Below are positions 11,287 to 43,818 of a stretch of DNA of 64,000 bases, in pieces. The DNA is from Amphiscolops sp. MND2022. Lineage: Eukaryota. Location: positions 8,124,001-8,188,000 of the forward strand of contig OZ076409.1 in assembly GCA_964187785.1 (NCBI GenBank), given 5' to 3'. How positions within the stretch are numbered: the first letter of the stretch is position 1; each line of letters opens with the position of its first letter. The notes beneath the pieces were generated by a model. That model was not told where the DNA came from and ran no database searches. It saw nothing but the letters and a program-made list of their open reading frames with translations. Made by a program: the position numbers and the translations under genes.

Positions 11287-11553
11287 TGTGCTGCTTTTAA
11301 TGGTTGGTTAGTTCTTTGGATGGTATTATTCACAACTACTAAAAACGGCTGAGAGACAGACTAGCTAGCTTACTTTATTACAACTAGTTCGAGGTGTTAG
11401 AAGTAGAACAAAAAGGAAGTCAACTGAATACTGATTATTAGTTTTCTCTCTCTGAGGGAGTAGAGATTTACAATCATTCAATAACAAATAAATGTACATT
11501 CTAGAACATTCTAAACATCTAAATACTATTGGTTATTAATGTAGGTCAGTACA
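11287..11553 (-). repeat. Giant element 3' LTR (267 bp)
   Basis: Differs from 29419-29687 by 2 substitutions and one 2-bp indel; AATAAA on the minus strand; preceded by PPT-like CCGGGATGGA. Confidence 0.95.
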
Positions 11554-13607: not shown

Positions 13608-14897
13608 TTAAGATCGATGCATTTTTTCAATAGTGTAGTTGAATTCGTCTAGAGATGTGCGAATGCACAAAGCTGATTGGCTAATTCTTGTCGTATCAAA
13701 TACGATATTTTGTATTATGCTTCGAGCTTGTTCAAGGGTATTAACGATTTCAGCGATTGTTATAAGAATATCTCGGTTCGGATGATGATACGGTTTTATG
13801 ATATTCAGGATATCTGTATAGTTCTGTAATTCATGTTGGGCGAAAACTTTGTGGTTGAGGAATATCATTTTTGGTTTTCTTAGGCGATTCTTGTTTTGCC
13901 TTTTTATATTCTTTGTGATTTCCATTTGTAAGAAGTGAAAGCAGATGAGAAATAATGAAAATTAATTCATTATTTGAATATCCCTTTTTGGTCATTGCGT
14001 GAAAACAAGATTTTTCACAGTCTCCCAAAGGTTGAGAGGCTATATGTTGAAGTGGAGGAAGAGGATCAGATATATGTTGAGGTATATCTTCTTGTAGTAA
14101 CGAATCGTCGTTCAGAATGAGGTATTCTTGTGGTACAATGATTGGTCTTTTTGGGTTATCATTTGGAAGGAAGAGAAAACTTTGTTTCAGCGGGTCATAA
14201 TTTCTAAGTTTTCCTTTTGTTTTGGTATGATCTATTAAATATTCTGAGTTGAAAGTGAATGGCGTTGTATATTTGGAGTTGAAGAATATAGAATTATCGG
14301 GCTCTTTATATTGAAGAAACTTTTGATAAGTCATGTGGTGGGCCTTTTTGATTTGGTATGGCAAAAATTTTGCATCATTTTCTTCGGTTCGAAGATCATA
14401 TGGAGATGGTCTGGGGAAGTTGTTTGGAGTGAGAAAATTTTCACTTTATTGTTTAACTACCAATCATATGGGGTAATCAATTTTGAAGCAATTGATGTAT
14501 GATAATCATTTTCAAATTCTCTGATGATGAATTTGTATTTTGTTGGAATCATGTATAACGAAGTTAACTGAGATTGAAAGGTGAAGTGTTTTGACAAGAG
14601 AATAGGAACTAATTCACAATCTCTATCTTCATCTTGTTTAATTGGTTTTATGAAAGGAGGGCAAGCGCCAGATTCCATAAAAGGTTTATCTGCAGTTATA
14701 TCTGGGTACTTTCTTTTTTGAGATCTTGTGTTAACATGATCTACTTGTTCAATAGGAATATTTTCTACAGGGTCTTGAGAGTTGGAGGAAGAGTTATTAT
14801 CTTCGTTAACATTTTGTTGAATAGTTATATTCAAAGGGGATGCAAGCAATTCAGAGGGATTAGAGTTAACTACATCAATTTCGGGCAAGGATTCCAT
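13608..14897 (-). pseudogene. Accessory ORF A of giant element (~430 codons; one stop and two frameshifts), unknown function
   Basis: Three collinear sense ORFs (14457-14897, 13831-14364, 13608-13925) with similar composition that join by frameshift. Confidence 0.5.
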
Positions 14898-15339
14898 TAT
14901 TTAAACTTGCGTGTTTTTGTAGAGCTAAAATAATGATTATAACGTTTGATTACATTGTTTCTAATAATAAGGAAAAATTTTGTTATGTCTTTTCTATCCA
15001 TTAAATTGTTTGTTAAAATTAAAGTTTAAATTGTACTTACAATATGGGAATACTGAGTCAATGATGGGTTGAAAACATCAACAATCACAGTGGCATCTAT
15101 TCCAGGAATAGAAACTTCTGTGATTTCGGTCTTTTAGATGGACTGAAAATCCAGTTGAAGTCTTCTGGTTGAGAGTTGAGTTGTGGTGGGCAAGTGAATT
15201 TTTTTTTTGAGTTGAAAAAGAGAGACCGGTCCGAATGAGAATTTGGGTGTGAATGAAAGTTAAAACTGAGAAGAATTTAGTTGATAATTTTTTGAACTTT
15301 TTCTGAGATTAATTTGTTTTTTAAGTTATTGCTTTTCAG

Positions 15340-17916
15340 CTAGGAGGGATTGAATTTTATAAAGACTTTAGCAGGACTTTCCGGTACAGCTATTACATTT
15401 GACATTATTGGATCATAGTCCTGAGAATTAATATCGTTTACATTAGTTGGGTGTGTCTTTTGCGGTGATTGAATTGTTGAATTCTTACTGGAATATTTAG
15501 GAGGTAAATAAGGGGAGTCAGTATCAGAGTGTCTTCGTTTATTGTTCAATTCTTTTTCCGGCAATAGGATATTATCATTTTCACTTGTTGTAATTTTGTG
15601 TTTAGTATATATCCGTTTTCGTTTTCCTGTATTGTTTAAATCGGTTACCATTTCCGATGTAACTATATTAAAAAATCCATGGGCTATTGAACTCAAAATG
15701 GAAATGTTGCTTTGGAGAGTATATTTTATGCTAATTGTTCTGTAGAATTTGAGTAAAAATGTTAAAACTTCTCTAATGAAAAGAAATGTTGAAAAATAAA
15801 TTCCACATTGTGTTAAAACATAACATGGATATCCAAAGAAATTAATGAATGCTTGACTGAATCAGTCAGGGTTAAAAAGTGGTAAAAGGTTTAACAAGTG
15901 GTCATGTACTCCAATCCTTAAATGATTATAGGGATTATGTCCTGAGTATGAGTGTTTATCATAATGCATTGAGATGAAATCATAGCTTAATGATTTTCCA
16001 AGTAATTGAAGTGTTGTGTCTGAATGTTTAGCAAATAATACTCTATTCCAGAGTTGATGTAATTCTGCATTTGAGTATATACCGGCATCTTGGGCGGTAA
16101 ATGTATTAGGAGTGATTGTTGTTTTAGTTTGGGTAGGTTTAAACATTTGTGGTGCTTCTCGTTTGAGTGGTTCTGGTGTTAACACATAAAAATCTCCGTC
16201 GTTGGAATCTGGATCTAATTCTATTATATTTTGTGGATTATTTCCACATTCAATTGGTGTTGCATAGTTAAAAGTTTGTCTTGTTATTGGGTCATTATAC
16301 ATTATCGTTTCTCGGTAGTGTATAGGAATTCTATCAAAGCATTTGCCTGCCTTGTATAGTGTTGATATAAAATGAGGGCAATCATACAGCCATGCTGTAG
16401 ATCCTTCGACGTAGAGAAAGTTACTACGATTTCCAGTTAAAAGAAAACCGGCTAATCGAGGATTTTTAACTGACATAGCTAAGATTGTTAATAGTTGAGT
16501 TCTTTCCAGTTCACATATTGTATGAAAAGTGTTTAGTTCTTGTACTGTCATGGATTTAAATACATGATTTATTGTGAAATCAATCTTTGTATCAATGTGG
16601 GCATCATAATCTAAAGTGGCGAAATTGTTTGATATATTCAATGCAGGGAATATATACCTTTTGTTTGAATCATCATATTTTATATTTCCACTAATTGTTT
16701 GGTCAATTATTGAGTGTGGTTTTGGTAATCCTGTGTTCATATCAAAACCATCTAAGTATGTAACAAAGATGTCATCATATTGTGTTGAAAAAAAAGGTTC
16801 AGGTTTTCCACAGAAGGTTTGTGCAATTGGGTATATTTCAAATCGAGAAAGGCTTGGATTGCTTACTTTTGATTGTGGTGTTTTTACATTAGGATATCTT
16901 GTTCCTTGTATTCCTTCTGTTTGAAGTTTTTGTGTGATGTTTGAAGTTTCAATGAAGGTATCGGTTTCTATCCAGTATCTATCTTTGATTCGTGTCATTC
17001 TACCAATGAATTCTTGAAGTTGAAATATGAGGCAAAATTTTTCATCAAACCATGTTAATGTATATGGAGTTTTGGTCGTTGGTTTACAAAATCCGTCTGA
17101 ATGATAACATGGTAATATGTGTCCGTCATGTATTAATTGATTGTTTTTATCGTCATAATCTATTGCGGTGTTAACAATTCTAAATTTCCAACTTTGTCTG
17201 GTAATTAAAAGTTCTCGGTCTGATCGACATCTGGAGTATGTATTTTGTGTAACATTAACTATCCAGTCAGGATAATTTTCATCAAATACGAAGGTTCCAA
17301 TATGCCATGTATTTAATTTTTTTACTCTGAATGGTGTCTGAATTCGTTCAATTGTGTTTTGATAATTACTATCGTCGAACAAAGAGAAAGAGCTTTGTTT
17401 ATTGTAGTTGTTTAGTTCTTCGCTATCAGTCGCGTTTAAATATCTGATCATATTTTTGCATTCAAAAGGGTCCAGTATTTTTGGAAGTTCTAATGTGTTT
17501 TGTCCCCATTGTAAACGATCATATCGTCTACTAGATGTGAATGTTCGTGAACACCAGACTTTCTCAGTCTTTATATATGCTTCGCATTTAAAGGCTTTTA
17601 TTCTTTTAGCTTTTGCTCTAACATAAACTGTTGTTTGGGTTTTTGTGTGTTGTATATCTGAGGGTGCTTGTTTACATGGTTCTACATTAAATAAACTGAA
17701 TTGTCTTAAGTTGTTTTGTGTTGCACAATCATAATGGGATACCATCAAGTTTAAAATGTTAGGGTCTTGGTCTGAAATATGATTTTCGGAATTGGTGGTG
17801 TCAACTTTTGGAACAGTTGAAGGGTGAACTAAAGAGTGAACTATATGTATTATATATGTGTATTTAACAACTTGTATTATATATATTAAGTAAAAGGTAA
17901 AGGTGATTTGGTTCAT
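15340..17916 (-). CDS. env: env-like class III (gB/chuvirus-glycoprotein-like) fusion glycoprotein, ~858 codons, one premature TGA at 15862-15864 just before the TM segment
   Basis: Hydrophobic N-terminal signal-like segment; HYDC...EPC...FKC...WC; ICELERTQLLTILA...NP.LAG.LL...EG..AWLYDC...CFDRIPI...DPITRQ...IEC; N-glycosylation sequons; the same frame continues past the TGA into FINFFGYPCYVLTQCGIYFSTFLF and a cytoplasmic tail. Confidence 0.8.
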
Positions 17917-19550: not shown

Positions 19551-22500
19551 TCAGCAGAATTTTTGAGAAAGTGAAATTATATCGTTTTGACCAAGGAAAA
19601 GTCGGTAGTCTTTTCTTGGTTGTGGGCGGAAATGGTATCTATTATAGGAGTGTCTTCGGAGATTAATAAAATTATCATAGTCATGAATATCTGATTGGTT
19701 ATCCAGGTAGGTATTTTGAGGAATTTGTTCTTTTTGTTTATATGGAAATGAAGAATATTGGCTAAATGATTCTGGTTGTAAGTCAATCGTGAATGGTATA
19801 TCCGTTTCTTTATTAGATGTTGTGGAAGGAAATTGTTCTTCGTCTGTAAATTTGTCTTCATCAGAGTTAATTATTTGATCGTTTATATTTGAATGACAGT
19901 CATTAAATAAATGAGGGTTATATTGTTGTAGGAAAGGAAAAATAACTGGTTCTTTTGGATGATAAGGAATTAAATCATTTCTATGTATGTGCGATGTATA
20001 ACCATCTTGATTAACAATTTCATATGTTATGTCGGAGATTTTGTTATTAATTTTGAATGGGCCAATTCTGAGAGGTTTTAATTTATCGGAAAAATGAACA
20101 TGGAGAAAATTTCTTTTTAGTACAAATGTACCAATATCTAAGGGTCTTGGATTGTGATATGTTTTGTTAAAATAAGCATAGGAATTAATCTTTCTTTTTG
20201 TGTTGTCATATACCGTATGGTATATCTGTATCATAGCAGTTTCAGTAGCTAAGATCCATTGTGGAATTGGTTTAGATAAAATTTTATGAAAAAAAGGGTT
20301 TAGATTTGATTTGTCATAGTGTGTATGAAGTGGTAATTCTTGACAATATTGAGAAGTACAATTTCTATATGTATCTCTTTGGAGATTGAGTTCAAAGTTG
20401 ATTGGAATTCTGGGTATAGTATGGAATACTGTTTCATATGGAGATAAGTTTAATTCAGAAAGTGGTTGTGAATTATGAGCATAAGCATACATATGAACTT
20501 GAGTTGACCAATTTTCTGGAGTGTTATGTAAGAAAAGTCTGAGATGAGTTCCAAGATTTCTGTTTTGATTTTCAACTAAACCATTTGTCCATGGTGCATA
20601 AGGAGTTCTTGGTGAATGTCTAATTCCCATTGTGGTACAAAGATTTGCAAATTCTGAATTAATGTATTCTGTTCCACGGTCGGTAACTAGATATACAGGA
20701 GGTCCATATTTTGTTATCCAGTGATGTAGTAATGAGTTAACAGCGTTTTGAGCATTATTTTGTTTTATAGGTACTGTTACCACAAAATGACTGAATGCGT
20801 CTATTATAACATGAATGTATGAATTTTGATTTGATGGTGGGTTTATAGGTCCTTTTGTATCCATTGATATTCGGTAATTAAAATATGAAGCATTTTCTGA
20901 GAAGGTTTGTATAGATGCAGTTTGTAATTTTTGGTTAATATGTTTCTTTTGTTGGCATTCAATGCAATCATGGATGAATATTGACATCCATTTATTCAAG
21001 TACGGTATGAAGTAAAATTGGTTGAAAGCCTTGATGGATATCTTTATTCCTGAATGTCCATGAGCATGAAGTTTGTTAAAAGCTGCGTGGAAAAGTTTAA
21101 ATGGTAGACATATTTTGTCTCTTTGATTCGGGTTGGAATCGTGAAGATTAGGATAACCTATGTGGATAATTTTTGTATCATGATTAATATATAATTGGTT
21201 GAAGATTTTGTAAAATACTAATAAGAAAGAGTTAGCTGCAATTGTTGGGTCTATTTGTAAGGGTCTTTCATTATTAAGTATCCATTGGTAAACCTTTCGT
21301 AAAACAGTATCTTGGTTTCGTTGAGCTTTTATTGTTTCAATGGTTATTTGTGTATCTTCTGGTAGGAAGAAGTAATTAAAATATTTTTTGTATTTGAAAA
21401 AGGATGGATCAAAAAATGGAACTTGTTGTTTACAATAGTCGGATTTGGTAGGATATTGTATAGCAAGGGTGTGTTCCTTTACTATGTCTGAGTTTTCTTG
21501 TTGGATATTATTTGATTGTGTTATTTCATCTTCATCACTAAGAATGTCAGTATCATTAAGAATTGTCGATTGTTGTAAAAAAGATTTTGCTTGGTTTTTT
21601 GTAGGCTTTTTATTTTTTGATTCGAATGGAACAATAGATTGAAAAGAGAAGGAATCTAAAGGTTTTATGTGTATTTCTTCTTCTTTGTTATTTATACGGA
21701 TAGAGAATTGGTCGTCTCCGTAGTCAGCAAGGATAGGGTGACAATCATTCTTTTGATTATATTTTATTTCTTCATGTTTTACTAAATAATGTACTGGTTT
21801 GAGTTGATTATTTTTCATGATAGAGAAATCTATTTGAGGTGGTAATTGTTTGTGTCGTAATTGGTGTACTTGTAACTGTTCTTTTGTAAAGGTTCGTGAA
21901 AGCATATCTGCTACAGTTAAATTTTTTCCAGGGGTATGAATGATTTTTAGTTTGAGAATTTGGTTAGTTGCATTTGTGCTCTATAGAATCTAGGACTAAG
22001 ATTTCCTTTCTTTGCGAAACATTGTAGTAAAGGCTTGTGATCTGTGAAGAGGTATATAGGATGAGGAGATCCAATGATCAAAAATTCATATATTTGCAGT
22101 GCGTAAACTATTGCAAGAACTTCTCTATCTAAAGTTGAAAGTTTTTGTTCTTGTGTGTTAAGAATTCTGGAGTTATAAGAGATTACTTTCATCTTATTTT
22201 CTTCGTTCATTTGGAATAAGACTGCGCCTAAACCTACTAACGAAGCATCTACTGTTATGAAAAATGGATGCGTGGTGTTGGGTATTGTTAATTCAGTGTT
22301 TGCTGTCATTGTATTTTTGACATTTTGAAATATTTTTCTAATTCAGGTGTCCATTGAAATTTAACATCATCATGTAGTAATGTATACAATGGTTTAAGGT
22401 TTAGATGAAGTTTTTCAATGAATTTTGAATAAAAGTTAACACTGCCAAGAAATTGCATAACATCTTTCTTTTTTTGGTGATGGAATTCTTTTAATAGCTT

Positions 22501-23281
22501 CAATTTTGGATGGAATTGGTTTAATTGTGTTGTTACCAATTTCATGTCCAAGGAATTTTACTTTGAGTAACATGTAGAACGATTTTTCAGGTGCAAGTTT
22601 GAGATTTTCTCGAGATGCTATTGTATGTGATTCTTTTATAAGTTCAAACATTTCGTGTTTTTCGTTTGCGAGTAATAAAATATCATCGAAATAAACTAAC
22701 GCAGAACGTTTCTCTATAAGCGATCTAAAGAAAGTTGACATTTGTTTTCTAAAAAAAGTTTGGAAGTTCTTTTAATCCATAAAATCCACGGATAAAGGCG
22801 TATAATTTGTCACCGGATGAAAAGCCTGTAAGTTTAATTGTTTCTTCGTCTAATGGTGTATGAGCATATGCATACATTAGATCAATAGTTGATTTGTATT
22901 TTTTATTGGCTCTAGCTAATTGAGGAGCTAAAGGTTCAATAGGCCAAGATTCAGGTTCTTGGTTAGTGTTTGAGTTTAGATGTCTTTCGTCTAAAACAAC
23001 TTTTATTGCGTCTCCTTTTGGGATAATAATTAAAGGGTTTAAAAATGTTGTTCCAATAGTATGTTTTTCATCTGTTGTTGAACCAATTTGTTTTATGATG
23101 TTGTATTTTTCAAGTTCTAATAAAAGTTTATTTAGTCTATCTCTATAATGAATAGGTACTTTAGAAGGTCTTTGTGTGTGAAGTTTACAATTATCTTTTA
23201 TTCTAATTCGAAAGGGAGTAGAAATCTTTCCTACGTCGTTCTTATGTTTGGCGTAACAATTTTGGTTATTAATCAAAATAT
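19551..23281 (-). pseudogene. pol: pol of giant element (RT-RNase H-insert-integrase), ~5 single-base frameshifts
   Basis: KYKSTIDL and YFDD RT; DASLVGLGAVL, TDHKPL and ADMLSR RNase H; H..GH..C..C zinc finger, MDTKGP, TDRGTEY, NGLVE integrase; GPF C-terminal motif. Confidence 0.92.
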
Positions 23282-26200
23282 TCAGAGGTTTACATATTCT
23301 GTATCGGTTAAATCTGAGTATTCAAAATTGAACTTCTTTATGAATTGTTGATTTTCTGTAGAATAGGGTAATGGAGGGAATTCTTTTCGAATTTTATCTG
23401 AAGGTCGAAGGTTTCCAGTAACAGAAGGTATAGGAAGTTGAAGTGTTTTGTCGTTAATTTCTATCTTGTTAATTTCTAATAGGGATTGTGGTGTTACCCT
23501 AGTACATAAATTCATATCTACATAAGGATTTTGTTTAATCGGAGTTGTGGTATCAGGGTGATACGCATGTATTACAGAGTGAATAAGTGAATTTACATCG
23601 TTAACTCTGTAGTGAGGAGGAGTTGTTTGAGTAATAGGTATTTCTATATATCCAATAATTCCTCGTGGTAATGTAGCTGGATAAGATGTAAAGTTTTGAA
23701 TTATGGTTGCACATGAGTCTTTGCTTTTTTCATTGACTATCATATCTAGGAAATGAAAGATATTTTTGAATTTTTGTAAGAAATATGTATATGGGTTTGT
23801 TGGATAGAATTTTGTATTATCTTCAAGTTCAAAATTTAGATTTGAATAGTTTTTAATTGGGAAATGTATGGTTTTTCCTGACCTTGGTTTAAAGTGAATT
23901 GGTTCCTTACATTTAATAGTATAAATGTAAGAAATATATGGGTAATCTTTTTCTGTAAATGTGGAAAATGTAGTTTTTGTTGGAAGCTTTGGATGTTGTT
24001 CTGTGTACGTCATAATGTTTTGTTGAAAATCAATATTTTGGATGTGTTTTTTGAAAAAGGGTGTTCCAAGAATGTTGTATTTGATATTTGCTACGGCAAA
24101 ATCGATATTGAAGGATCGTGTTTTGTGATTTACTTCAGTGAAACAGGTCATCGAAATATAATGTATTATTGGTACTTCAGTTTGGTTTGCAACTGTAAGA
24201 GTTTTGGCTCTTTTGTTTTGAAGGTTAGTTGGAACATTGATGTTTAATTGTTTGGAAATTACATGAAATGTTGGTAAATTCAAAACAGATATGGATGCTC
24301 CAGTATCTAAGAGGAATAAGATTTCGAATTTTGAAGGTAGTATGTTATCATTTGGTTCAGAAGCGTGAATATATAGTGGATAAAACCAACTATAAGGAGT
24401 GATTGTATTAGCTATTTCAGTTATTTGACAGGTGTGGATTTCAAATTTTGTACTATCATTTTCTTTTGCAGATTTAACGTCTACTTGATTTATTCTGTTT
24501 TGTTGTCTGTTTCTTGAGGGTGTTCTAGATCTTGATCTAAAATCTCTAGGTTTTGATGGAGATTTATATGGATAATTATATCGTTTGAAGAAGTTTCCTT
24601 GTGATTGAGAACGAGATCTGTATCTTGAGCGAGAATTATATCTGTAATTTGAGTTATTTCTGTATGGAGATCTATATGGAGATCTAGATGGAGTTTTTCT
24701 TTGATAATAATTATCAAATCGAGATCTATACGGACTTCGGGATCGATTATAATATCTTTGTCGAGAGTTTGATCTATAGTTGTTTTGCGAATATTCTCTA
24801 CTATTGCTACGATATCTATCAATGTTTCTGTATCTATCATTATAGTAATTTTGATTATATTTACTACGATCATTATCTGAGGAGTAAGGATTTGTATTGT
24901 CATTTCGATTTTCTTGAGGATTATTAGGTTTACTGCGAAAATATTGTACAAAGGATTGTTGAGGAGTTCGTGATCTTTGGTTATTGTATTTCTGGTATTC
25001 GTCATCACGTTGTTTTTGATAACAATTTGAAATACTATGATTATTTTTGTGACAATAGGAACAATATTTTCTATACGCTGGTTTGCTTTTGTTATTTGGG
25101 TCTCCAGTTTGAGTAACCATTATCTGATCTTCATGTTCAAATTCTTTTTTGTTAGTATCATCTTCAAGCGATACTTTGTTTATTTCTAGGGCTAAGTCGT
25201 TAGTTCTAATTTTTTCATTAGCAATATCTTCAGAATCGACATGTCTAACAAGTGTATAAAATGGTATTGAAGGTTCAAGTAATGTTGATACATGTTTAAC
25301 TTGTCGTTTATGGGCAAAATCTTTAAACTTCTTTGGTAACCCTTTTGTAAAGATTTCATCATTTTTGAGATTTATGGTAGCTGCATTTTCATTACACCAT
25401 CCCTTTTTAACTAATTGTTGTACTCTAAGGGCGAAGTGGCGAACTGTTTCATTGTCCTTTTTCATGAGTGACATAGCTTCTACTTGAGCGTAGTAAGCAG
25501 TTTTTCGAGATGAGAATTGTTTTTTGAATAATTGTACAAAAGAATTCCATTGTTGTTCATATGATATATGGAGGTTAGTGTACCAATCGAGAGCTGTTCC
25601 TGTTAATGAACATTGTATGTAAGCCATGCGTCTGTTATGCCAAGATTTGTAATTTATAGGATTATTTTGAGGTTCTTCACCTATGGCGAAGGTTAATCTT
25701 GCTTCGACTTGTTGTAGATATTCTTCGGGGGTGTAAGAATGGTCCAAACCATCAAAAGGTTTCATAGGTTCTGGTATTGAAGCGGACATGTTTATAAAGG
25801 TATCTTGTGGCATTGGTAAATATTGGGGTGGAGGAGCTAATTGTTGTGTGAGTGTTGGAGGTATATGTTGGATTGTATTTGATGGTAATGGGTTAGGATT
25901 AGGGTTAGGATTTGGATTTGGATGCGTTTGATACAGAGGATCAGTTGGTATATGTGTAAGTGGAGGATTATGAAGTCTTCTTTGAGAATCCTGTGTAATA
26001 TTAGAATAAGAAGTGGAAGTATACGAGGTTCCTTGATTTTGAGAATATATATTCTGGGAAGTATTGGTATTTGATAATTGTATGAAGGGGTTTTGTGTTG
26101 TTGAAATTGTTTTAATTTGAGAGTGATGTTGGTTGGTATTTGTATTGTTAGTTCTATTTGATGGAGGATAAAAGTTATGATTAAATGGATCATAATATCG

Positions 26201-27583
26201 GTTGGAAGTTTGGGGATTATCATTAAAATTGTTGTTGGAAGAGGTTGATCTGTTTGAGCGAAATGCGGAGGGAATTGATGGAGGATCAAATCTAGATCGA
26301 GTGATGTATCTTGTATAATCAGGATTAGTTCTTGTTGGAGATGCAACATTAACAGAAGTATTCTGAGCACTAGATGTAGTCAAAATATCATCCTGTAATG
26401 TATCATGGGTTTCGTCGTGTATGTCATCTGTATGTGGAAGGTTTAAAGTTATATTACGGTTTGGAGATGTAGCTAAGTGAGATTGAGGACTATGTGTAGT
26501 TTGTCTTTGGTTTACAACTCTAGTGGGAACTCTAAAGGGTTGAGTATGTACTGATGTTGATGTCCCTGTTTGTGATGGATTATGTGTTGAAACTGTAGAT
26601 TCTTGGGTAGTAAACTCATTATCGTTATAGTTTTCAGGTTGATTTTGTTGTTGGGTTGTATTTTCCTGATCGGTGTTATCATCTTCAGTGGAATTGTTAG
26701 TGTTAAAATGTAAATTTTCTTGATCTTGAGAATTTTGTTCATAGTGGTAAGGTCTATTGTCTGCGAATAGATCATTTTCTGTAATTAATAGAGGATCGAA
26801 ACGTATGTAACCTAAAGTTTGTTTTGTAATTGATTGTGGTTTATGAAAGTAAGGATCTTCATTTTGTTCACTGATGATGAATGGTAAACATTCTTCTAAT
26901 GTAAAATGATCTGGAAATGCTGTAAAAGCAGATTGATCTTGTTGTGACCATAATAGTTGATAATTAAATCTGAAGTATTTTCTGAGAAATAAAGATATTA
27001 CTTTGATATGAGGAATTGTTTCGTCATTTAATGTTAAGTCTTTGAAGTAATGGTAGATGAAATTTTGAATTCGTAATATATCAGCTTGTAACCAATGATG
27101 GGGGTTGTCTTCAGGATTAACTAATCTTTCAATAATTTCTACGTCGAAATTGTCTATGTATCGTTGAAGATCGTCGAGTGCATTTGGACTAAATTTTGGA
27201 ATTTCCTGTGCTAAGTTGTGGTCTTTTACATTGTTTAGAAAAGCATGAAAAACTTGTTTAAAAGGAACTTGAAGGTTTATTGGATTTATTGTTCTTCTGT
27301 ATATATGAGATGAATTAGGTCTTTGATGAAGAAAGGATATTTGAAAAGTTGGGTATTCTTCGGTGGTTGTTAAAACTTTGTATCTAATATAGAAAAGGTA
27401 TGTGTCCAAGTGTTCTCTAATAAGAGGGATTGTTTCAATTGTGTGTGGTTCATTTTCAAATGGGAGTGGTTGTGTATAATGTGAAATAATGTTTTGTAGG
27501 AATGGGTTTAGTTCTAATTTTACAATTTTTGCATTTTTAATGATGGGGGTTTGAAAAGGTAAATAGGTTGTTGTTAATGACAT
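23282..27583 (-). CDS. gag: gag-protease of giant element (1433 aa open; probably once continuous with pol)
   Basis: PFDG...EEYLQQVE...LTGTALDWY...WNSF capsid-like region; CSYCHKNNHSISNC knuckle; Arg/Ser/Tyr-rich region; LLDTGAS and NILG aspartic protease. Confidence 0.9.
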   Translation of the reverse strand: MSLTTTYLPFQTPIIKNAKIVKLELNPFLQNIISHYTQPLPFENEPHTIETIPLIREHLDTYLFYIRYKVLTTTEEYPTFQISFLHQRPNSSHIYRRTINPINLQVPFKQVFHAFLNNVKDHNLAQEIPKFSPNALDDLQRYIDNFDVEIIERLVNPEDNPHHWLQADILRIQNFIYHYFKDLTLNDETIPHIKVISLFLRKYFRFNYQLLWSQQDQSAFTAFPDHFTLEECLPFIISEQNEDPYFHKPQSITKQTLGYIRFDPLLITENDLFADNRPYHYEQNSQDQENLHFNTNNSTEDDNTDQENTTQQQNQPENYNDNEFTTQESTVSTHNPSQTGTSTSVHTQPFRVPTRVVNQRQTTHSPQSHLATSPNRNITLNLPHTDDIHDETHDTLQDDILTTSSAQNTSVNVASPTRTNPDYTRYITRSRFDPPSIPSAFRSNRSTSSNNNFNDNPQTSNRYYDPFNHNFYPPSNRTNNTNTNQHHSQIKTISTTQNPFIQLSNTNTSQNIYSQNQGTSYTSTSYSNITQDSQRRLHNPPLTHIPTDPLYQTHPNPNPNPNPNPLPSNTIQHIPPTLTQQLAPPPQYLPMPQDTFINMSASIPEPMKPFDGLDHSYTPEEYLQQVEARLTFAIGEEPQNNPINYKSWHNRRMAYIQCSLTGTALDWYTNLHISYEQQWNSFVQLFKKQFSSRKTAYYAQVEAMSLMKKDNETVRHFALRVQQLVKKGWCNENAATINLKNDEIFTKGLPKKFKDFAHKRQVKHVSTLLEPSIPFYTLVRHVDSEDIANEKIRTNDLALEINKVSLEDDTNKKEFEHEDQIMVTQTGDPNNKSKPAYRKYCSYCHKNNHSISNCYQKQRDDEYQKYNNQRSRTPQQSFVQYFRSKPNNPQENRNDNTNPYSSDNDRSKYNQNYYNDRYRNIDRYRSNSREYSQNNYRSNSRQRYYNRSRSPYRSRFDNYYQRKTPSRSPYRSPYRNNSNYRYNSRSRYRSRSQSQGNFFKRYNYPYKSPSKPRDFRSRSRTPSRNRQQNRINQVDVKSAKENDSTKFEIHTCQITEIANTITPYSWFYPLYIHASEPNDNILPSKFEILFLLDTGASISVLNLPTFHVISKQLNINVPTNLQNKRAKTLTVANQTEVPIIHYISMTCFTEVNHKTRSFNIDFAVANIKYNILGTPFFKKHIQNIDFQQNIMTYTEQHPKLPTKTTFSTFTEKDYPYISYIYTIKCKEPIHFKPRSGKTIHFPIKNYSNLNFELEDNTKFYPTNPYTYFLQKFKNIFHFLDMIVNEKSKDSCATIIQNFTSYPATLPRGIIGYIEIPITQTTPPHYRVNDVNSLIHSVIHAYHPDTTTPIKQNPYVDMNLCTRVTPQSLLEINKIEINDKTLQLPIPSVTGNLRPSDKIRKEFPPLPYSTENQQFIKKFNFEYSDLTDTEYVNL

Positions 27584-28949
27584 TTTTCTAAAGTTTGTCT
27601 CTTATCACCGTAAGTATTTTTTCAAGAAGAACACAAACTATAAATAAGACACAAAACGTGTATGTTGTAATGAGTACTACTGTGGTAACCTTTTCCCACA
27701 TGTTATAATGTGAAGGTGAGAACGTTGCAATTGATTTTATATATTTTTTTAAGTTGGAGCTCTTGGGTAATGTCGTTGTTGATTTATGATAAAGAAAAAA
27801 TATTGTTGATATCGTTCAATTAATCTTTCAAAATCGTTTGCTGTAGGGTTTTGAAGGGAGCTAATTGGCGGAATGTAAAAGTTGAAAGGATAAATTGCTT
27901 GGTTGTATATGTTAGGGTTCATATAATTTGTATTATAATTTGATGTTGTTTGAAAAGTTAATAGTTGTGGATAGAGAAAAGAAGCGGATGCAGTAGGATC
28001 TGTATTCAACCTCAAAGGATTGCTAACAGAAACTAAATGTTATTTTAAGTCTGGATCACTTTAAGGTGTCTAACATAAGGTTACTGACACGTCCAGAAAA
28101 ACTAAGATTGTTTTATTTTTAAGTGGGTTGTGTGTTTTAAGACTAAGGGAGTGGAACTCTGAACAATCAACGTCCACTATCCAGAGTCTGATCAATACTG
28201 ATCAAGATCAAAGTTTGATCTTTGTTTCTTTTACTTTTACTTTTACTTTCTGAGAATTTTGAAGATTCGAACGTAGTTCGGTGTCCTCTCGATTCTCCTA
28301 AAAGACGTTTACACTTAACTAAGGTTTTTAGTCTGTCTTAGAATCAGAGTAAGCTGGTGAGGCTGTGTGATTGGCTAAGTCTTACGGGAGGGGATAGGAA
28401 TTGTGGGTGCCTGAAAGTAGAAAACTAACTTTACTGTGTTTGTGTTATTTACATGCCTTATTTTAAGTTTTAAAGCAAAAGAGTTGTGAGAATTGTATGT
28501 GGTATTTTGTTAAAATAATTGTTTTGTAGGATTATGTTAAAATTATTACCATTGAAAGTACTAGAGATAAGGTTGAGTGTACTTTGTGTTGTTGTTTTTG
28601 TTGGTTATTGAAAAATTTTTTGAAGTTACTTGTATTATTTAAGTTTTGTGAATTTATTTGTATTGTTTGTCGACAATAGGAAAAAAAATGGAATAGTGCG
28701 TGGTTGTTTTTTGTAGTTAGTCTTGGTTGCCTTTTTTTGTTTTCAGAGTCTATTTCTGAAATTTTTTTGTAGGAAATTTTGTAGAAAGGGGATCCGAAAC
28801 GTAAAAGTAGAAAATCCAGGTTTTCTGCCAACACGAAGTTGATCTTGAGACGTATGTGCTTATAGGTGAGCGGAGTTGGACATGCACTCAATCAACTATT
28901 ACACCAGGAGTCCACCTGACGTCCAAGATAGCAGGATTGAAGAAAGTTG

Positions 28950-29179
28950 CTGTGTCAAAGGTGTTAGAAACCTTGATAAACCAGACAAACGTCAAAGAAC
29001 TGTTTCAACAAGCTTCCGGATTAGCTGTGATAAATCAGTATAGAGAACAGAACTGTGTCACTTTGGATAAATCAGTCCGAAATGAAACCGTTTCAACGTA
29101 TTGGAAAACGTGATAAACCGGTATGGCAAAAAAAACAGGAAGAAGAACCGTGTCAACGTTAGAAAACGTGATAAACCGG
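28950..29179 (-). repeat. Array of five imperfect stem-loops in the 5' leader of the giant element
   Basis: Sense-strand consensus CYGRUUUAUCA-[variable hairpin]-UGAMACRG at 28950-28984, 29000-29038, 29053-29075, 29088-29121, 29148-29179. Confidence 0.8.
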
Positions 29180-29400
29180 TAGTGAAGAAAATTTGTTATA
29201 TTTAAATTGATTTTTGTAGTGGAGAAATTGTGTTTCGAACGATGATGTATTTATTGATGAAATTCAGAAAGTCACAGACTAAACTTTCAAGGAATTCTAG
29301 AAAGATTTCACTGCAATTCCAGAGAATTTCAAATATAGAGAGTGGTATTTGTATGATTGTTGAGAGAAGAGAAATCATCCAGGAGAAAAGGCAAAAATTT

Positions 29401-29415
29401 CTACAAGTCGCACCA
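29401..29415 (-). promoter_or_regulatory. Primer-binding site of giant element
   Basis: TGGTGCGACTTGTAG 3 nt downstream of the 5' LTR on minus; cognate tRNA not assigned. Confidence 0.75.
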
Positions 29416-29418
29416 AAT

Positions 29419-29687
29419 TGTGCTGCTTTTAATGGTTGGTTAGTTCTTTGGATGGTATTATTCACAAGTACTAAAAACGGCTGAGAGACAGGCTAGCTAG
29501 CTTACTTTATTACAACTAGTTCGAGGTGTTAGAAGTAGAACAAAAAGGAAGTCAACTGAATACTGATTATTAGTTTTCTCTCTCTGAGGGAGTAGAGATT
29601 TACAATCATTCAATAACAAATAAATGTACATTCTAGAACATTCTATAAACATCTAAATACTATTGGTTATTAATGTAGGTCAGTACA
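29419..29687 (-). repeat. Giant element 5' LTR (269 bp)
   Basis: ~99% identical to 11287-11553; flanked by TSD ATCC. Confidence 0.95.
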
Positions 29688-29798
29688 ATCCATTGTTGTT
29701 TTCCCATGTTTTAGAAAAGCGCATGGTTAAAAAAATTCGTTTAATCAAACTTTCTTGCAGGCCATTGACCATTTGCAAAGCGTTTCCAAAGAAAAGCT

Positions 29799-30395
29799 AA
29801 CCAGAGCCGCATATGCGGTAAAGGAGTCGGCTGATGTCTTTTTCCTTCTGACTCGCTCCAATCCCAGAATCATACGAATTTATTGAAATTGCACACATAG
29901 GACCACACATTCTATGGTGTAAAAATGACTGAAGAAATTTTTGTTCGAATAGTATGGAGTTTTTGAGAAAATCAAAAAATGGCGTTTTTTGGCCATTTTT
30001 GGTTAATTTTGGCTATGTTTCTCACATCCCAGCCATACAATTTTGATGCCATTGCACATATAGGACTCTAGTATGATGTAGAATGACTGTAGAAAATTTC
30101 GTTCGAATCGTATGGACAATTTTTGAGAAAATCGAAAAAAGTCGAAAAATGGCTGTTTTTTGGCCATTTTTGGGCTAATTTTGGCTATGTTTCTCACATC
30201 CCAGCCATACGATTTTGATGCCTTTGCACACGTAGGGGCCCCTTTGGGTGTAGAATGACTGTGCAAAATTTCGTGAAAATCGTATGGACAGTTTTTGAGA
30301 ACTTAGAAAATTTCATGAAAAGGTCGGGAGAAAAAAATACAAAAAAAAACAGCACGATTGCATAAGTAGTCGAAAATTTGTCCGACTCCTAAAAA
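29799..30395 (-). mobile_element. HINE-like family A copy with internal tandem subrepeats
   Basis: AGGAGTCGG/CCGACTCCT subterminal inverted repeats, CCGCATATGCGG palindrome, T-rich insertion site. Confidence 0.7.
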
Positions 30396-35504: not shown

Positions 35505-35710
35505 TGTGACATGAATATAGTTGAAGGTCAATAGTAACGCAATGTTACATAATTCTTACTTACTTTATGACCTTTTATGTTAATTACATAACATACCTGC
35601 TAGTAACTCTAATGTCATCTGTAGTACGATATAGTGAACACTATAACTTGATCTTACGTACAATACAGTATTACATTCCCAAAACTTCTTTATTCCATTG
35701 GTATACAACA
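35505..35710 (+). repeat. Mag-like element 5' LTR
   Basis: Direct repeat of 41279-41484. Confidence 0.95.
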
Positions 35711-35723
35711 TGGCGCAGTCAGA

Positions 35724-38700
35724 ATGAGTCAAAAGAACGAAAACAACTCCGCGGAATCCAATAGCAGAAACTCTTCAAGTGAAGAATCTGGAGACAAAAA
35801 AGGACGGACAACAACACACCAAAAAATGATACTACCAATATTCGAGAAGAAAACCATACAAGAAGCGAAACTATGGTGGCGACGATTTACTCAGTATGTC
35901 AAAATGACCCAGAAAATAGACTTGAATACAATGACAACAGACAAAGAGATATTGGAAGAATATCGAGAAGAACTGGAGAAAAAAATAAAAGACATTTTTA
36001 TCTGGGCATTGGGAGAGGAAGCCGTTACAGAAACGACAAAAACGGTGAGAGACAACGATCCAAACAAAATGAACATCAACCGACTCTACATATTATTTTG
36101 CCTCCACTTCATACCAGAAAGAAACAAATTCCACAGCCGGGCAGATTTTTTCGGAATAACGAGAGAACCGAATGAGACGGCTGAAGACGTTTGGACACGA
36201 ATATTGCAGACCGAGAAAAACTGCGAATTTGACAACGTTACCGCAGCCGAACTTATCGCATCGAAATTCCTATCTTTAATCGGGAGATCAACGGGAGACT
36301 ACGAACTCAAAAAGAAAATCCGGAAAAGTAACATTACCATTGAAACGATAACCGATCTAATACATGAATATATGTATGACCGGTTAAACGACTCAAACAA
36401 TTCTACTGACGGAAGGAACATAAAACATGTACAAGAAAGGCCGAGAAAAAGAAAATGGTCAGAGAAGACCAGTTACGACAAAAACAAAAAACGACCGGAG
36501 TATCAAAAACCAAGATACAAAGATAACCGGTGCGGACAATGCGGAGCACCTAACTGGTCCAGACAACACATATGCCCAGCCAAATCGGTAGATTGCCGAA
36601 ATTGCAAAAAGAGGGGGCATTACGAAAAAATGTGTAGACTTCCAAAAAGAATACAACATGTGGATAAAGTATCATCATCAGCAGAAGAAGACAACTGGGA
36701 CTACAATAAAATACAAAGAATAAACAACAACAAAAAGAACGGAGAGTATCTACACGCAACACTATTGGTTAACAACGCACCAATAAAATTTATAATAGAC
36801 AGCGGGTCCCCAGTAACTTTGATACCACAACGCTTATTTAACAAAATTACTGAAGTGGAAGAACTCAAAACCAATTACAAAGACGTAAACGACAACAAGA
36901 TCGATTTCCTGGGACAAACAAAAGCACTGGTGAAAACCAACAGTACAACACTTCAGCTGCCACTATTAATTACAAAAACAAACATTACACCGTTAAGGGG
37001 ACTAGATTGGATGAAACTGCTTGGAATAACAGTAAACACAACAACCGACGATATCAAAATACACAACATCAAAATGGACGAAACCGAAAAGAAGATCCTC
37101 AAACTGAAGAACGAATTTGAAGATCTGTTTTACAACAACACGGAAATAAAAGACTTGGAAGTAAAAATCGACCTGAAAGAAGACGCAAAAATAATACAGC
37201 AAAAGGGAAGACCAGTACCAATTCACCTTCAAAATCAAGTAGCGGAAGAAATAAAAAGACTAATCAAAAACGGATACTTGGAAAGGGACACAGAAATAAC
37301 CGAAGATTGTTTCGTGAGCCCGGCAGTCATCACGGTGAAGAAAGACAAATCAATAAAAATTGCACTGGATTCAAGAAAATTAAACGAAGCAACAATTAAA
37401 AAGAAAGCACAAATGCCGAACATGGAAGAGCTAATATCCAGAATATCACGGAAGATATCGGAAGAACAAGAAGGAGAAATATGGATAACAAAACTAGATT
37501 TCGATTATGCTTACGGTCTAATCAAATTGAACGAAAATACAAGAAATCTATGTATTTTCACCGTTACAGGCGGAGAATTTACGGGATACTACCGTTTCTT
37601 GAAAGGCTTTTACGGACTGGCGGACATCCCAACAATTTTCCAGGAACGGAAAGACAGAACACTGGAATTCGAACACCCCGCTTGGCTAGATGACATCATA
37701 ATCGTAACCAAAGGAACAATAGAGAAACACGAGTCGGAAGTAAAAGAAACAATGAAAAAATTAGACGAAGCAGGATATAGACTACACCCGAAGAAATGCG
37801 AATTTTTCAAGAAAGAGGCCGAATGGGTGGGACACCAAATAAACCAAGACGGCATCAGACCACTACAAGACAAATTGGAAGTGATAACAAAAATAAACAT
37901 ACCAAAAAACGAAAAAGAACTAAAATCCTTCCTGGGAGCAAAACAATATCTGTCAAAGTACATCAAAAATTTATCAGCACAGACAGATATACTCAGAAAA
38001 CTACTGAAAAAACAAAACGAATGGATCTGGACAGAAGAACACACAGAAGCGTTCAACAATTTAAAGAAATTAATCACCCAATTGCCATGTCTAGCGCACT
38101 ACAACTCGAATAAAGAAAATATCCTAACAACCGACGCAAGTACAAAGGGACTAGGCGCTACACTGTGGCAAAAACAAAAAGACGGAAATCTGAAACCGGT
38201 TGGCTTTGCAAGCAGATTTTTATCGGACACCGAGAAAAAATATGCGATAAACGAGCTAGAGCTACTAGCAGTAGTGTGGGGACTGGAGCATTTTCGCTTA
38301 TATGTTTATGGAAAACCAATTGAGTTACTAACCGATCACCAAGCGCTGGATCCACTAATTAAACGAAACAGATCAAATAAAACTTATAGCGCAAGATTAA
38401 CAAGATGGTTGGATCGATTAGCACACTTTGATATAAACATAAAGCACATTGCTGGCAAGCATCTGAAATTGACGGATTATTTGAGTAGAAACCCGATTTC
38501 AAAGCCGGAGTCAATTGAGAATTACGACGAAGAATACGTAATTAATTGCGTAATACCCTTACTGGAGTTCATTAACACACACGGTAGCATCACCGACGAA
38601 AAGAAAGTAGAAGCACAAACGGACGAAGTAGCAGCGTCAGCTAACAACCAATCACAAACAAGAAGCGTGAACAAAATACAACTCAGCGAGTACGAACAAG

Positions 38701-41003
38701 ACAAACAGTGGTCATTGAAATCCTCAAAAAGCAAGTACGCTCAAATACAGCTGACACAAACCAAACCGTACAAAACAGAATGGATATTAAAACGATCGAA
38801 TCTATCGAAAAGGTCGACCCATCGGAAGAAACACTGAGATTAACAACAAGATGGAAGGAGATAACAAAACCAGGCGACTACAGATTCACGCAGGGACAAT
38901 GGAAAAAATACAACCTATCCAGAGCACTGCGGGCAGAAGTTGAGCTGTGGCAGAAAAGAAACAAATTACTATGGAAACGAATGGAAAATAACAGCAGAGA
39001 GACAGAAGAAGAACTAGAGAGAAAAAGAGAATTCCATAGAGTCATCGAAAAAATCAGAGCGAAGCCAAAAAGGGACGATACCGGGACAAGCAGCAACACA
39101 CAACAATCACAAGAACAAGATGAAATAGAAACAATGGCATCGGACTCCGACCAAACAATCGCTGTACCGGCGATCAACTTCAAGAGATACCTGGGGGCAA
39201 CCAGTGTACGATATATACAAATGGGAACGGCGAGTAAAGTGCAATACAACGAAGAATGGGACTTAGAAGAAACCATTTGTCAGGCCGAACAAAAATTTTC
39301 AACCGATTCAAAAACAATCGCAGACAAACAACAAACGACGAAAAATTAAATAAAACACTAGTATGCCTGGAGAGGAGAAGTTACGAACAGATACCAGACG
39401 AATACAAGGAACACCACAAAAACATGTCGACACGATTCGGAGTAGTGTTCTCTAATGACAAAATAGTAATTCCGAAGCCACTACGAAAAACAGTCATCTT
39501 ATTACTACACAAAGGCCACCCCGCCAACAACAAGATGACACACGCAGCCAAACCCTTCTGGTGGCCAAAACTCAACAAAGACTTTCAGACGAAATGCAAC
39601 AAGTGCATTCACTGCAAAATGTCAGGTAGGAGTATAAAACCACAAATACCAATGACGGAGATAAATTACTTACCTCCGGTAGAAAAACCAAACGAGGAAA
39701 TCCAATTGGATTTCATCGGACCAATAAGATTCAAACACCGGCGATTTTATATACTGATATCTATTGACCGGTATAGCAGATGGCCGGCAGCCTGTATATG
39801 TGAAGCTCCTACAGGCAAAACAGCGAAAAATTTTTTACAACAGTACATACTACTGAACGGTATCCCACAAGTAATTAGAACAGATAAAGGAACCGCCTTT
39901 ACCGGAAAAGAATTTAGACAAATGTGTAAAAATCTACACATTAAACTAATATGGTACACCATATATACACACAGCCACGGGACTAGTAGAAAGGGGAATA
40001 AAAACACTGAAAGATTTAATGAGTACCAATTTAGAAGACAAATGCAACTTAAATGATGCTTTATTCCAGTCGCTGATGGTAATGCGAAAGACCATCCATT
40101 CAAAAACTAAAGAGACACCGTTTGAAAGACATTATGGTCGAAAGCCACGAACGGAACTAACCAGCCACTTAAACTTACCAACGGACAAAAATGATTATGT
40201 TTCAGCGCAACCGGAGACCCTACAAGTCTATTCGTTCAACAATGGGCGAGGAGGATATGATCAACTCATCATGAAAACCCCTCGAAAGCTGAAATGCGAT
40301 GTTAGTAATAACCTCCCATACAAATTCCTAGAGAAAAAACAAAATAAAAACAAATTTGAAAGTGAATACAATACAAATCCACAAATAGCAGTAGCTGAAA
40401 CCAAACACACAATAACGACGGACACAAATAAAATAATACACAAAAAACGGATAAGTAAACCATTACCAAACTCATTTCAGAACCCCCTATCAAGAAGAGG
40501 AGAAAACCGTTGAGGTACAGACGGAAGATTTGTCCAAACATCCATACAGTCAGACTCAGAAGACGAAGAAGAGGAAGAAGAAGAGACACAAACCGAGACC
40601 GATGAAAGGCGAGCAAGTACCCCAACGGCAGAAACATCAGTAGAGGGGATGGAAACCAGCCTCGATTTCACACCACCGATAGAAATCGGACGAGGAAGAA
40701 AAAAGACAATCAAGGAAAAAAAACCCGGGAGAAAACAACCTAAAATTCCACGTGGACAGAATGAGCGAAGAACAACAAGAGCAAGCAATGGAAGCAATAG
40801 CCGAGGACCCGACAACAATCACCATCGTCGACAACAACGGTAACGAAAATCAAAACCAAAACAACCAAAACCAAATAAAAACTGAAATAACGGAGTTACC
40901 AGATACAATTGAAACAAACAATACAAACATACAAACTAGAAAATCTTCTAGAATAAGAACGAATAATCCGATAATAAGATACGGAAATCCAGTAACATTC
41001 TGA
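35724..41003 (+). pseudogene. Mag-like gag-pol (1037-aa open gag-PR-RT-RH, then frameshifted integrase and tail)
   Basis: Two zinc knuckles (CGQCG...HICPA; CRNCKKRGHYEKMC), FIIDSGS protease, LDFDYAY and WLDD RT, TDASTKG/ELELLAV/TDH RNase H, H.GH..C..C, LDFIGP, TDKG integrase. Confidence 0.9.
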
Positions 41004-41278
41004 TATTTACAGGAAACACAGTTAAACGAATAAACAGCCAAGCCAGCGGAAACACACAATCAGACTGAGGAGGACCGGAAGAGAAAACAGGAGGAACGTG
41101 AGGAAACCAGTAGCATGGTATCGAGGCGAGAAGCACCGTCAAACCTTAAACAAGAAACTGAACGGACTCATTATCAACAATTGAGTTGATACAACCTTTT
41201 TGTTCATACATGTAATTTAAATTTGTGTTATAAAATACAGTTATCAATTATACTAGATAACTTCCTACCAGGGGGGAA

Positions 41279-41484
41279 TGTGACATGAATATAGTTGAAG
41301 GTCAATAGTAACGCAATGTTACATAATTCTTACTTACTCTATGACCTTTTATGTTAATTACATAACATACCTGCTAGTAACTCTAATGTCATCTGTAGTA
41401 GGATATAGTGAACACTATAACTTGATCTTACGTACAATACAGTATTACATTCCCCAAACTTCTTTATTCCATTGGTATACAACA
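41279..41484 (+). repeat. Mag-like element 3' LTR
   Basis: Preceded by PPT, followed by TSD TTTGT. Confidence 0.95.
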
Positions 41485-41960
41485 TTTGTAAACAAGACAC
41501 TGATAATATCTCACTTTCTCGGTCAATGATCCTCTCAATATGTAATCAAAGATTCATCAAAGAATGATCCGAACCTTCAGAAAAAGTCTAGACCTTTTTG
41601 CCAGTCATTCCATTCACACTTTTGGTGTGTGAAAGAAAGTTCTTGATTCCGAAGAAAGGAAGTCAGAGTGAATTACTGACAAGCTGTGTTTTGCCATGTT
41701 CAGAGTTGCTTTGAAACATTTGTTGACAAATATTTGAAACTTTGAGAGCTCAATCATTTTCATGCGTTCCATTTTTTATGGTTCACCTAGTGTTCTTTCC
41801 TGCTCAAGTCAAGAATCAAATATGAGTAAACAGGACGTCAAACTGGTTCTCGAAACGAAGTGTGAGTCTGGCTGTCAATTAAAATGTGCCAAAGGCGTTA
41901 TCAAAGTGCATGATGGAAAAATTATTTTTTGGAAGACGATTTCTTGTTTTGCATTCAAAG

Positions 41961-42500: not shown

Positions 42501-43197
42501 CTGGGAAAAACATGCAATTCTCAAAGGCAAGAAATGAATGACACTTCTCGGACCATGATTCTTATTTCTCTCTGGTACACACCTGGCTTCCACCCATACC
42601 CCCCTCCCACAAGAAAAAAACGAAAACACGTTTATTCCTCAAAGTTCTTGCACGAATAAAAAATTATATGGTTACATATAGCCAAAATTTCACTCCTGAA
42701 ACAAGCTAAAATCGAATAGAAAGGCCCCAATTTCAACGCAAATTTTGTCCGCCATAAAATCTAATGAGCAACTTTCAACTGGCAGTCAATGTTAAAGGTT
42801 GGACTATGTCAAATCGAATCTTTTATTAGACCAAAGTTTCAACTCAAACAATGTCGACATAATGGTATTTGAACCTTCTGTCTTATACCTACAACCACCC
42901 CCCACCACCACCCCCGTGGCCGTTTGAGGGGGTTGAAGGTTAAGAAACATGGTCCCGCTTCTCTAATTGACTCCCTCTGACGACGTTCAGAAACAGTCCT
43001 TTCAATGATTCTTTCAATCACGATTTTTCAACATCCTTGAGTATGTTCCATTGGTAGACGTAAAAAAATCGAGAAAGAAGGGGTGTCGTACGAATTTAAC
43101 TACCGCTGAAACATTTCCTGTTTCGTGGTCACATGTAGGTATTGCTGGAAAAGATCGCTTTAAACCTGGTTTCGACGAAGAATTCAATCCGAAAAGA

Positions 43198-43610
43198 AAC
43201 CAGAGCCGCATGTGCGGCAAAGAGGGTTGCTTAGGTCGTTTTCCTTCTGACTCACTCGAGACCCAGCCATACAATTTTGATGAACTTGCACATATTGAGC
43301 CCTTATATGGTGTATAAAGACTCCATAAAAGTTCTTTCAAAGCGTAAAAAGTATTTGAGAACATAGAAAAAAGTACAAACATGGCCGTTTTTCGGCTATT
43401 TTTGGGCTAACTTTGGCTATGTTTCTCAAATTCCAGTAATACGATGCTGAAACCATTGCGCACGCTGGGAGCACCTTTGGGTGTAGAATGACTGCACAAA
43501 ATTTTATGGAAATCGTATGGGTTTTGAATAATTTGAAATTTTTATTGAAAGGTGGGTAGAAAAATGTACGATTGCATAAGTAGTCGAAAATATTTTGCGA
43601 CTCCTAAAAA
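43198..43610 (-). mobile_element. HINE-like family A copy (diverged)
   Basis: Same termini as 29799-30395. Confidence 0.6.
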
Positions 43611-43818
43611 GTTAGTGACTGTAATAGTGTGGCTTTGAATTAACTGAAATGCTTGCTATTCTTGACCCACTTTCGTGCATTTGATAATCCCATTGAGCAG
43701 CCAACTCAGTTGCTTTGCTTACTGATGGTTCAATCGTCATGACGTCTACTGAGCTTCGGTTACAGACAGTACCTGTTACTGTTGGTAATAGCAAACTTCA
43801 GATTTAAAACTTAGCTAT

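Follow-up and report, generated by a model that had tools for sequence, protein, structure and literature searches.

A repeat array of predicted RNA stem-loops in the leader of an Amphiscolops Ty3/gypsy element as a candidate family-specific dimerisation and packaging signal

The 5' leader of an 18.4 kb LTR element of Amphiscolops sp. MND2022 carries, between its primer binding site (PBS) and gag, an array of five predicted stem-loops built around one conserved internal loop. This array is best read as a modular, family-specific dimerisation and packaging signal, a reading to which a probability of about 0.55 is given on the basis of sequence. The window, which is the whole 64,000-nucleotide stretch of DNA that was analysed, holds the element on its minus strand (29687 to 11287), and all five units lie there on the same (sense) strand at 29179–28950, just as the first-pass annotation had written them. 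The distance of about 220–450 nt downstream of the PBS given in that annotation agrees with the measured span of 236–465 nt, counted from the PBS's first base (29415). Of the multivalent protein-binding RNA element that had been proposed, what stands, well supported by covariation and by purifying selection across copies, is an RNA structure under selection whose repeats provide several sites for protein; among the roles suggested for it (packaging, export or translation control), packaging gains support from a single self-complementary loop in each copy. The dimer-type loop, the adjoining junction, the small open reading frames (ORFs) of the leader and the arrays of two sister families, called F0b and F1 to set them apart from the present family F0, were absent from the annotation and are added here.

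The element has the LTRs, PBS, gag, PR-RT-RH-IN order and env-like gene of the gB type that mark a member of the Ty3/gypsy group (Table 1), and another copy retains an open gag-pol frame of 2653 aa. About 1,100 copies are present in the 1.07 Gb genome, where the PBS junction gives 1057 exact matches, and the subfamilies range from groups that are 99–100% identical to older ones at 85–93%. Only some of the copies have GTAAG sites, which are donor candidates, in their LTR. A search of the window for tRNA genes found none, and the PBS was matched to no tRNA. In its gag-pol-env order, its HSV/gB-type env match and its many similar copies the family resembles the 'ancient errantiviruses' of Chary and Hayashi (PMC13524379, in part). 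The window also contains a second, unrelated gypsy element (35505–41485, plus strand) with 207-nt terminal repeats that are 99% alike and with RT, RNase H and integrase frames, as well as a probable BEL/Pao element (2340–10889; DUF1759, integrase zinc finger) between 290-nt repeats that are 95% alike. A dispersed repeat family with an internal period of 172 bp recurs at 770–946, 29972–30320, 43197–43611, 52426–53032 and 59102–59362, and the 18.4 kb element is inserted near one of its copies.

Table 1. Features of the 18.4 kb element, in window coordinates.
Feature	Position	Strand	Remarks
5' LTR	29419–29687	-	269 bp with TG..CA ends; GGAT target duplication (4 bp)
Primer binding site core TGGTGCGAC	29407–29415	-	also present in sister families
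Small ORF1, 58 aa	29202–29378	-	ends 22 nt before first unit; open in 108/135 copies
Unit A1	29148–29179	-	outer CCG:CGG, loop GUUUA/CA, UC:GA, A-U, apical stem-loop
Unit A2	29088–29121	-	outer CCG:CGG, loop GUUUA/AA
Unit B (short)	29053–29075	-	outer CUG:CAG, closed by C-G; copies have 1 to 3 or more
Unit C	29000–29038	-	single per copy; bears self-complementary loop
Loop palindrome UCCGGA, A-flanked	29015–29020	-	predicted kissing-loop dimer site
Unit D	28950–28984	-	copies have 1 to 4; young subfamily with outer U-A pair, old one with C-G
Single three-way-junction domain	28825–28934	-	junction common to both sister families
Small ORF, 57 aa	27749–27922	-	kept across subfamilies
Small hydrophobic ORF, 37 aa	27588–27701	-	synonymous sites saturated, dN 0.23
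Gag-protease ORF	23282–27583	-	Retrotrans_gag, one CCHC knuckle, RS-rich tail
RT, RNase H, integrase	19551–23321	-	split over several frames in this copy
gB-type env-like gene	15340–17916	-	PF24664, E 1.6e-24; interrupted in this copy
Accessory ORF-A	13608–14900	-	fragmented in this copy; 435–495 aa in other copies of three families
3' LTR	11287–11553	-	97% alike to 5' LTR; ends TG..CA

The array is a constant feature of the family. A pattern made of the two arms of the unit gives 4450 matches over the whole genome against 3 for a reversed control, and no further occurrence with one core mismatch or fewer was found on either strand of the 18.4 kb element. From 139 loci 135 full arrays (122 of them distinct) with 845 units were obtained, in the order A, A, B (1–3 or more), C and D (1–4), the arms of a unit being spaced by 6 to 22 nt. 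All 30 copies that were chosen by the PBS alone carry 5–9 unit calls, a few of which are misplaced fuzzy calls, together with the downstream junction, and genome-wide the 1057 PBS matches compare with 1107 for unit C. Units are likely to be gained and lost through tandem duplication; a contig run of unspecified kind, in which 26 of 30 bins were covered, showed only variants in unit number. Rfam returned nothing at gathering score for 27500–29800, where two weak matches far below gathering lay outside the array, and had no match on loci L112, L084 and L120. Resemblance to the K-turn, the IRE and TAR was considered and dismissed because the motifs do not fit.

The pairing register can be read from the 845 units. 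The outer helix consists of a C-G pair (812 units), a middle pair that is U-A (511) or C-G (309), which bears out the switch between CUG:CAG and CCG:CGG that had been described, and a G-C pair (822). RUU is then unpaired and followed by a U-A pair (825), with an A opposite C, A or U, after which come U-A (827), C-G (830) and a variable pair X:X' that is A-U in 569 units and C-G in 250. The UCA:UGA pairs of the first-pass annotation have been corrected to UC:GA plus X:X', with the bulged base directly 5' of GA; the former register is paired in 479 of 845 units and in 13 of 24 distinct shared unit variants, as against 827 of 845 and 24 of 24 for the latter. A bulge is indeed found, although its base is not always U (U 720, C 92, A 32), and the RUUUA/MA internal loop is kept, although its first base is not always R and can be C. 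The apical stems differ in sequence yet pair, as had been noted, with types A and D sharing the loop UUUCUAAC on different paired stems. Covariation across copies, which the annotation had set as a test of its reading, is also present in that two core pairs, and only two, change on both sides through few independent events. Among the 24 distinct unit variants (each in at least 3 copies) 97.4% of cells pair, whereas slid controls reach 25–40%. The middle pair of unit D is, genome-wide (n = 1509), U-A in 1329 cases (a count obtained by subtraction), C-G in 167, U-G in 7 and C-A in 6. This switch falls at the same position between subfamilies and is probably one event, and both of its bases are CpG-type transitions. 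It is very probable that the units fold, as predicted, into RNA stem-loops on the genomic transcript.

The distribution of sequence variants points in the same direction. Variants found in at least 3 copies affect 6 of 90 columns in the core and 1 of 20 in the apical stems, against 10 of 18 free positions and 48 of 84 columns in linkers and loops; in the flanks the figures are 106 of 199 columns on the upstream and 142 of 263 on the downstream side. Rare (private) changes, by contrast, have the same rate everywhere (8.5–13 against 9.6–10 per 1000 for the classes of columns), so that the core is hit freely after insertion whilst the lineages that spread did not keep such changes. The test covers 118 of the 135 arrays, those of regular architecture, the 17 dropped ones being mostly cases of misclassified types. 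Its Fisher P values are nominal because the copies are related, and most copies were fetched with array-containing queries; the unit finder tolerated up to 3 core mismatches.

The folding energy of the whole array is unremarkable (z -0.22 for the sense and -1.87 for the antisense strand) and was rejected as evidence for structure. Single units form weak, separate hairpins of -6.9 to -9.4 kcal/mol with z values of -0.8 to -1.95, and the antisense strand folds equally well or better; the choice of strand is consequently not fixed by energy. The functional strand is likely to be the sense RNA, on which six shared one-sided changes become G-U. These concern the fourth outer pair of the A unit (94 old G-U, 145 young A-U), a flank of B (32), two pairs of the three-way junction (50 of 133 and 32 of 133), one stem pair of F1 (58 of 300) and one case in F0b. 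Against the sense strand it may be held that the commonest loop apposition, A-C (579 of 845), would be G-U on the antisense strand, but the apposition is A-A in 210 units. A role of the linkers as splice acceptors was discarded, as a shared AG-to-GG change (32 units) removes the AG and keeps the stem as G-U.

Unit C stands apart from the others. Each of 131 copies has exactly one C unit, the loop of which reads A(A)-UCCGGA and then A. The palindrome is kept in 121 of these 131 units and in 1030 of 1127 genome-wide, in old and young subfamilies alike, whilst the other apical loops vary; 6-nt palindromes were found in no B or D loop and in 2 of 258 A loops. The array is followed by the junction domain, 110 nt in length, which folds at -31.8 kcal/mol (z -1.7) on the sense strand and as stably on the antisense strand, and whose descriptor has no match in the whole window other than 28934–28825. 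Further downstream in the leader, a stretch of 500 nt at about 28550–28040 (minus strand) is 83–85% alike between old and young subfamilies, is without a conserved ATG frame and includes a conserved donor-like CCC/GTAAGA. Small, mostly hydrophobic conserved ORFs precede gag in all three families, including the leaders of L084 and L112, with sizes of 37 aa in F0 and F1 and of 40–48 aa and 77–79 aa in F0b and F1. They resemble what are reportedly small membrane proteins of env-less infectious retrotransposons.

The sister families carry arrays of the same design that are made from other modules. F0b, whose integrase core is about 70% alike to that of F0, has in the same place units with a 5-bp helix (CUGAC:GUCAG, CCAAC:GUUGG or GCAAC:GUUGC), a 6-nt 3' bulge AUWCSU and a free apical hairpin; both this array and, behind it, the same junction with compensatory pair changes are found in 36 of 37 copies. 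In F1, the env of which is 53% alike, the array consists of 2–7 repeats of a three-way junction (67 of 67 copies), and its second hairpin, which lay outside a search pattern that took in the first two helices, switches between CGAC:GUCG and CAGC:GCUG over 300 units. The repeated junction of F1 (C-G, U, A-U, then CRRC:GYYG) is the one that is found once in F0 and F0b. A single self-complementary loop also recurs in most copies, with one GACG-loop unit in 31 of 33 copies of F0b and one CUAG-loop unit in 56 of 67 copies of F1 (the other 11 are without CUAG), and the complementary bases of these loops number only 2–4. GACG is the kissing tetraloop of MoMuLV. The F0 motif was found at 0 of 30 F0b and 0 of 60 F1 loci. 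In five distant gB-env families with the same PBS core, looked at in one or two copies each, neither array nor junction was found. Besides the three array-bearing families the genome holds at least five gB-env Ty3/gypsy families with the PBS core, L090 (C1:78589501-78599500), L093, L095, L097 and L099, in which gag and pol have separate frames and several ORFs of unknown kind lie between pol and env; the leader of L090 has a duplicated hairpin. In the F0b locus L112 the bulge module occurs once, circularly permuted, inside the long arm of the junction.

The array is quite likely to bind a protein in a family-specific manner. The CCHC knuckle of Gag is nearly identical in the three families (71% and 53% with flanks) though their motifs differ, and the divergence among the families is similar for the Gag N-terminus (38–41% alike), the RS tail (40–44%) and ORF-A (40–52%), which therefore does not single out a partner. 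The Gag tail has 24–28 RS/SR dipeptides in array-bearing families against 0–6 in four distant copies. ORF-A, which lies after env (L304:3037-4341, L302:1767-3107, L306:398-1882 and window 14900–13608, minus strand) and has a basic patch KRKY/KKRY/KKKY, occurs in each of the three families with an array, among which it is 31–41% alike; a look through the frames of the five distant array-less families did not find it. As RS tail and ORF-A both belong to one clade, their co-occurrence with the array is not independent evidence. In the model of ORF-A a small beta barrel is predicted with confidence, as well as a long helix at the C-terminus; single-sequence folding of the barrel did not reproduce it (pLDDT 42). 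ORF-A has no match in Pfam, no usable match in the Atlas, a best Foldseek E value of 0.32 with weak KOW/Tudor rows, and nothing at 0.001 in the viral library; its VIA rows are only coiled coils with Z at most 6.3. On the RNA side, the invariant unpaired bases of the unit are U and A, and UCUG occurs twice in 255 nt against 0.58 expected.

In a dimerisation and packaging signal of this kind, each unit would present the asymmetric internal loop RUUUA/MA on a free apical stem, and the loop would be read at UUUA, UC:GA and A. Through its 5–9 units the array would recruit several molecules of a protein encoded by the element, Gag being the most likely one, and the C units of two genomes would kiss via UCCGGA. 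A motif and a loop that are both specific to the family would allow its RNA to be singled out from thousands of related transcripts for pairing and packaging. The single self-complementary loop per copy and the position between PBS and gag in every copy speak for this reading; location and a hairpin with a conserved self-complementary loop, here a sequence feature only, are also what characterises a Psi or dimer-linkage region. Against it stand the U and A nature of the invariant unpaired bases, a knuckle that is conserved while the motifs differ, and the weak complementarity of the F0b and F1 loops.

The closest known systems are retroviral. The HIV-1 DIS is a hairpin with a 6-nt palindrome in its loop, flanking purines and internal loops, SL-D of MoMuLV kisses through two G-C pairs, and retroviral knuckles bind exposed G (PMC7599994, in part). 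With HIV-1 DIS/Psi and MoMuLV SL-B/C/D the F0 leader shares the position between PBS and gag, several stem-loops and a purine-flanked palindromic loop above internal loops, and with retroviral Psi more broadly a three-way junction and a Gag with a CCHC knuckle (PMC7599994, in part). Unlike retroviral Psi, it is made of one internal-loop module repeated 5–9 times in changing number with free apical stems, its invariant unpaired bases are U and A rather than G, the region encodes small ORFs, and the element is an invertebrate-type Ty3/gypsy. Lineage-specific repeated structures also mark coronavirus packaging signals, and the MHV packaging signal and SL5 offer short structured repeats with covarying stems that differ by lineage and serve selective packaging (PMC8206606, PMC12911879, both in part). 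In the coronavirus sense of a repetitive structural motif, with 2–8 lineage-specific repeats, three motifs are found in the three families, by analogy and not homology: the virus class is different, and here the hairpins are separate, joined by pyrimidine linkers and found in sister families that coexist in one genome. A literature search for such arrays in Ty3/gypsy leaders, with subscription journals poorly covered, found no description, and none of the terms stem-loop, UTR, packaging, leader and tandem repeat turns up in the main text of the env-element survey (PMC13524379).

Other roles for a structured leader RNA have to be weighed against packaging. As the main rival, the array could be a Rev-, Tat- or CERV-like response element whose loop is bound by ORF-A, or by the small ORF after it, for the export, elongation or stability of unspliced RNA. 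Multi-stem RNA elements and accessory proteins are indeed known from LTR elements (HIV RRE/Rev, musD MTE, MLV PTE, Cer1 CERV), and Cer1 of C. elegans needs CERV for export (PMC5767303, PMC10309623, both in part). The RRE, MTE and PTE are, however, single complex folds (PMC5767303, in part), whereas here a module is repeated next to the PBS. This role is unlikely: ORF-A accompanies the array in all three families and has its modelled barrel and helix, but that co-occurrence amounts to one clade and one event and is matched by the RS tail, ORF-A is without a Pfam family or significant fold match, and the single self-complementary loop per copy is left unexplained. Packaging and export or regulator roles can coexist. 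Translation control of a polycistronic leader, in which the array would govern how ribosomes scan, reinitiate or shunt towards gag and the small ORFs ahead of it, is improbable. In its favour, 106 of 108 intact ORF1 frames end 16 or 22 nt ahead of the array, a similar small frame ends just before the F0b array and more small ORFs precede gag; yet no ATG-started ORF was found before the F1 array, the hairpins are weak and separate with a freely varying number, and the dN/dS of ORF1 is a weak 0.75, no lower than in the +1 frame. A signal for a host protein, be it motor-driven localisation as with Egl-BicD or a host export factor, is very improbable. Egl-BicD, which transports I-factor RNA, depends on two bulged stem-loops (PMC13186709, in part), and the unit does have one 3' bulge besides a 5x2 internal loop and helices of 3–5 bp, but its large loop lies on the 5' strand where Egl signals bend at 3'-strand bulges, and sister families that share a genome would not be expected to carry three unrelated motifs if a host protein were the reader.

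Explanations that dispense with a sense RNA fare no better. An array of GATA-type DNA sites acting as enhancer or insulator, or a structure of the antisense strand, is just as remote as a host signal. WGATAR occurs in 545 of the 577 units of types A, C and D, antisense folds are equally stable, and it was the TGATAA motif that the first-pass annotation had offered as its alternative; that alternative is unlikely because B units, which lack WGATAR in 262 of 268 cases (6 have one), are equally conserved. The variable arm spacing, compensatory pairs that are meaningless in duplex DNA, the other motifs of the sister arrays and one-sided stem changes that give G-U on the sense strand argue against it too. 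Neutral tandem repeats with arms matched by template switching would fit the change of unit number by duplication and the CpG-type transitions of the D switch. This least probable reading is largely refuted by shared variants that are about eightfold depleted in the core whilst private ones are not, by an asymmetric loop that is kept and not corrected, and by three families with the same design.

The dimerisation and packaging reading may be extended, at somewhat less than even odds, to a swappable RNA identity code. An ancestral junction, a family-specific module amplified 3–9 times and a family-specific kissing loop would co-evolve with an element protein, and dimerisation and packaging would thereby be restricted, in each family, to its own genome. 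To our knowledge, how LTR elements select their own RNA among co-resident relatives is poorly defined outside vertebrate retroviruses. Three related and recently active families here provide three short, delimited RNA modules, a shared junction and candidate partners, and their specificity is thereby testable with RNAs of 25–110 nt and isolated domains. Once the partners are known, the repeats could serve as orthogonal RNA-protein tags. For the age of retroviral packaging architecture it would be informative to find a DIS-like loop alongside repeated packaging motifs in an element of the invertebrate type. If the identity code is true, it would provide the first example, from a Ty3/gypsy lineage, of a Psi that is modular, built from repeats and visibly subject to turnover; in one family the junction itself would have become the repeat.
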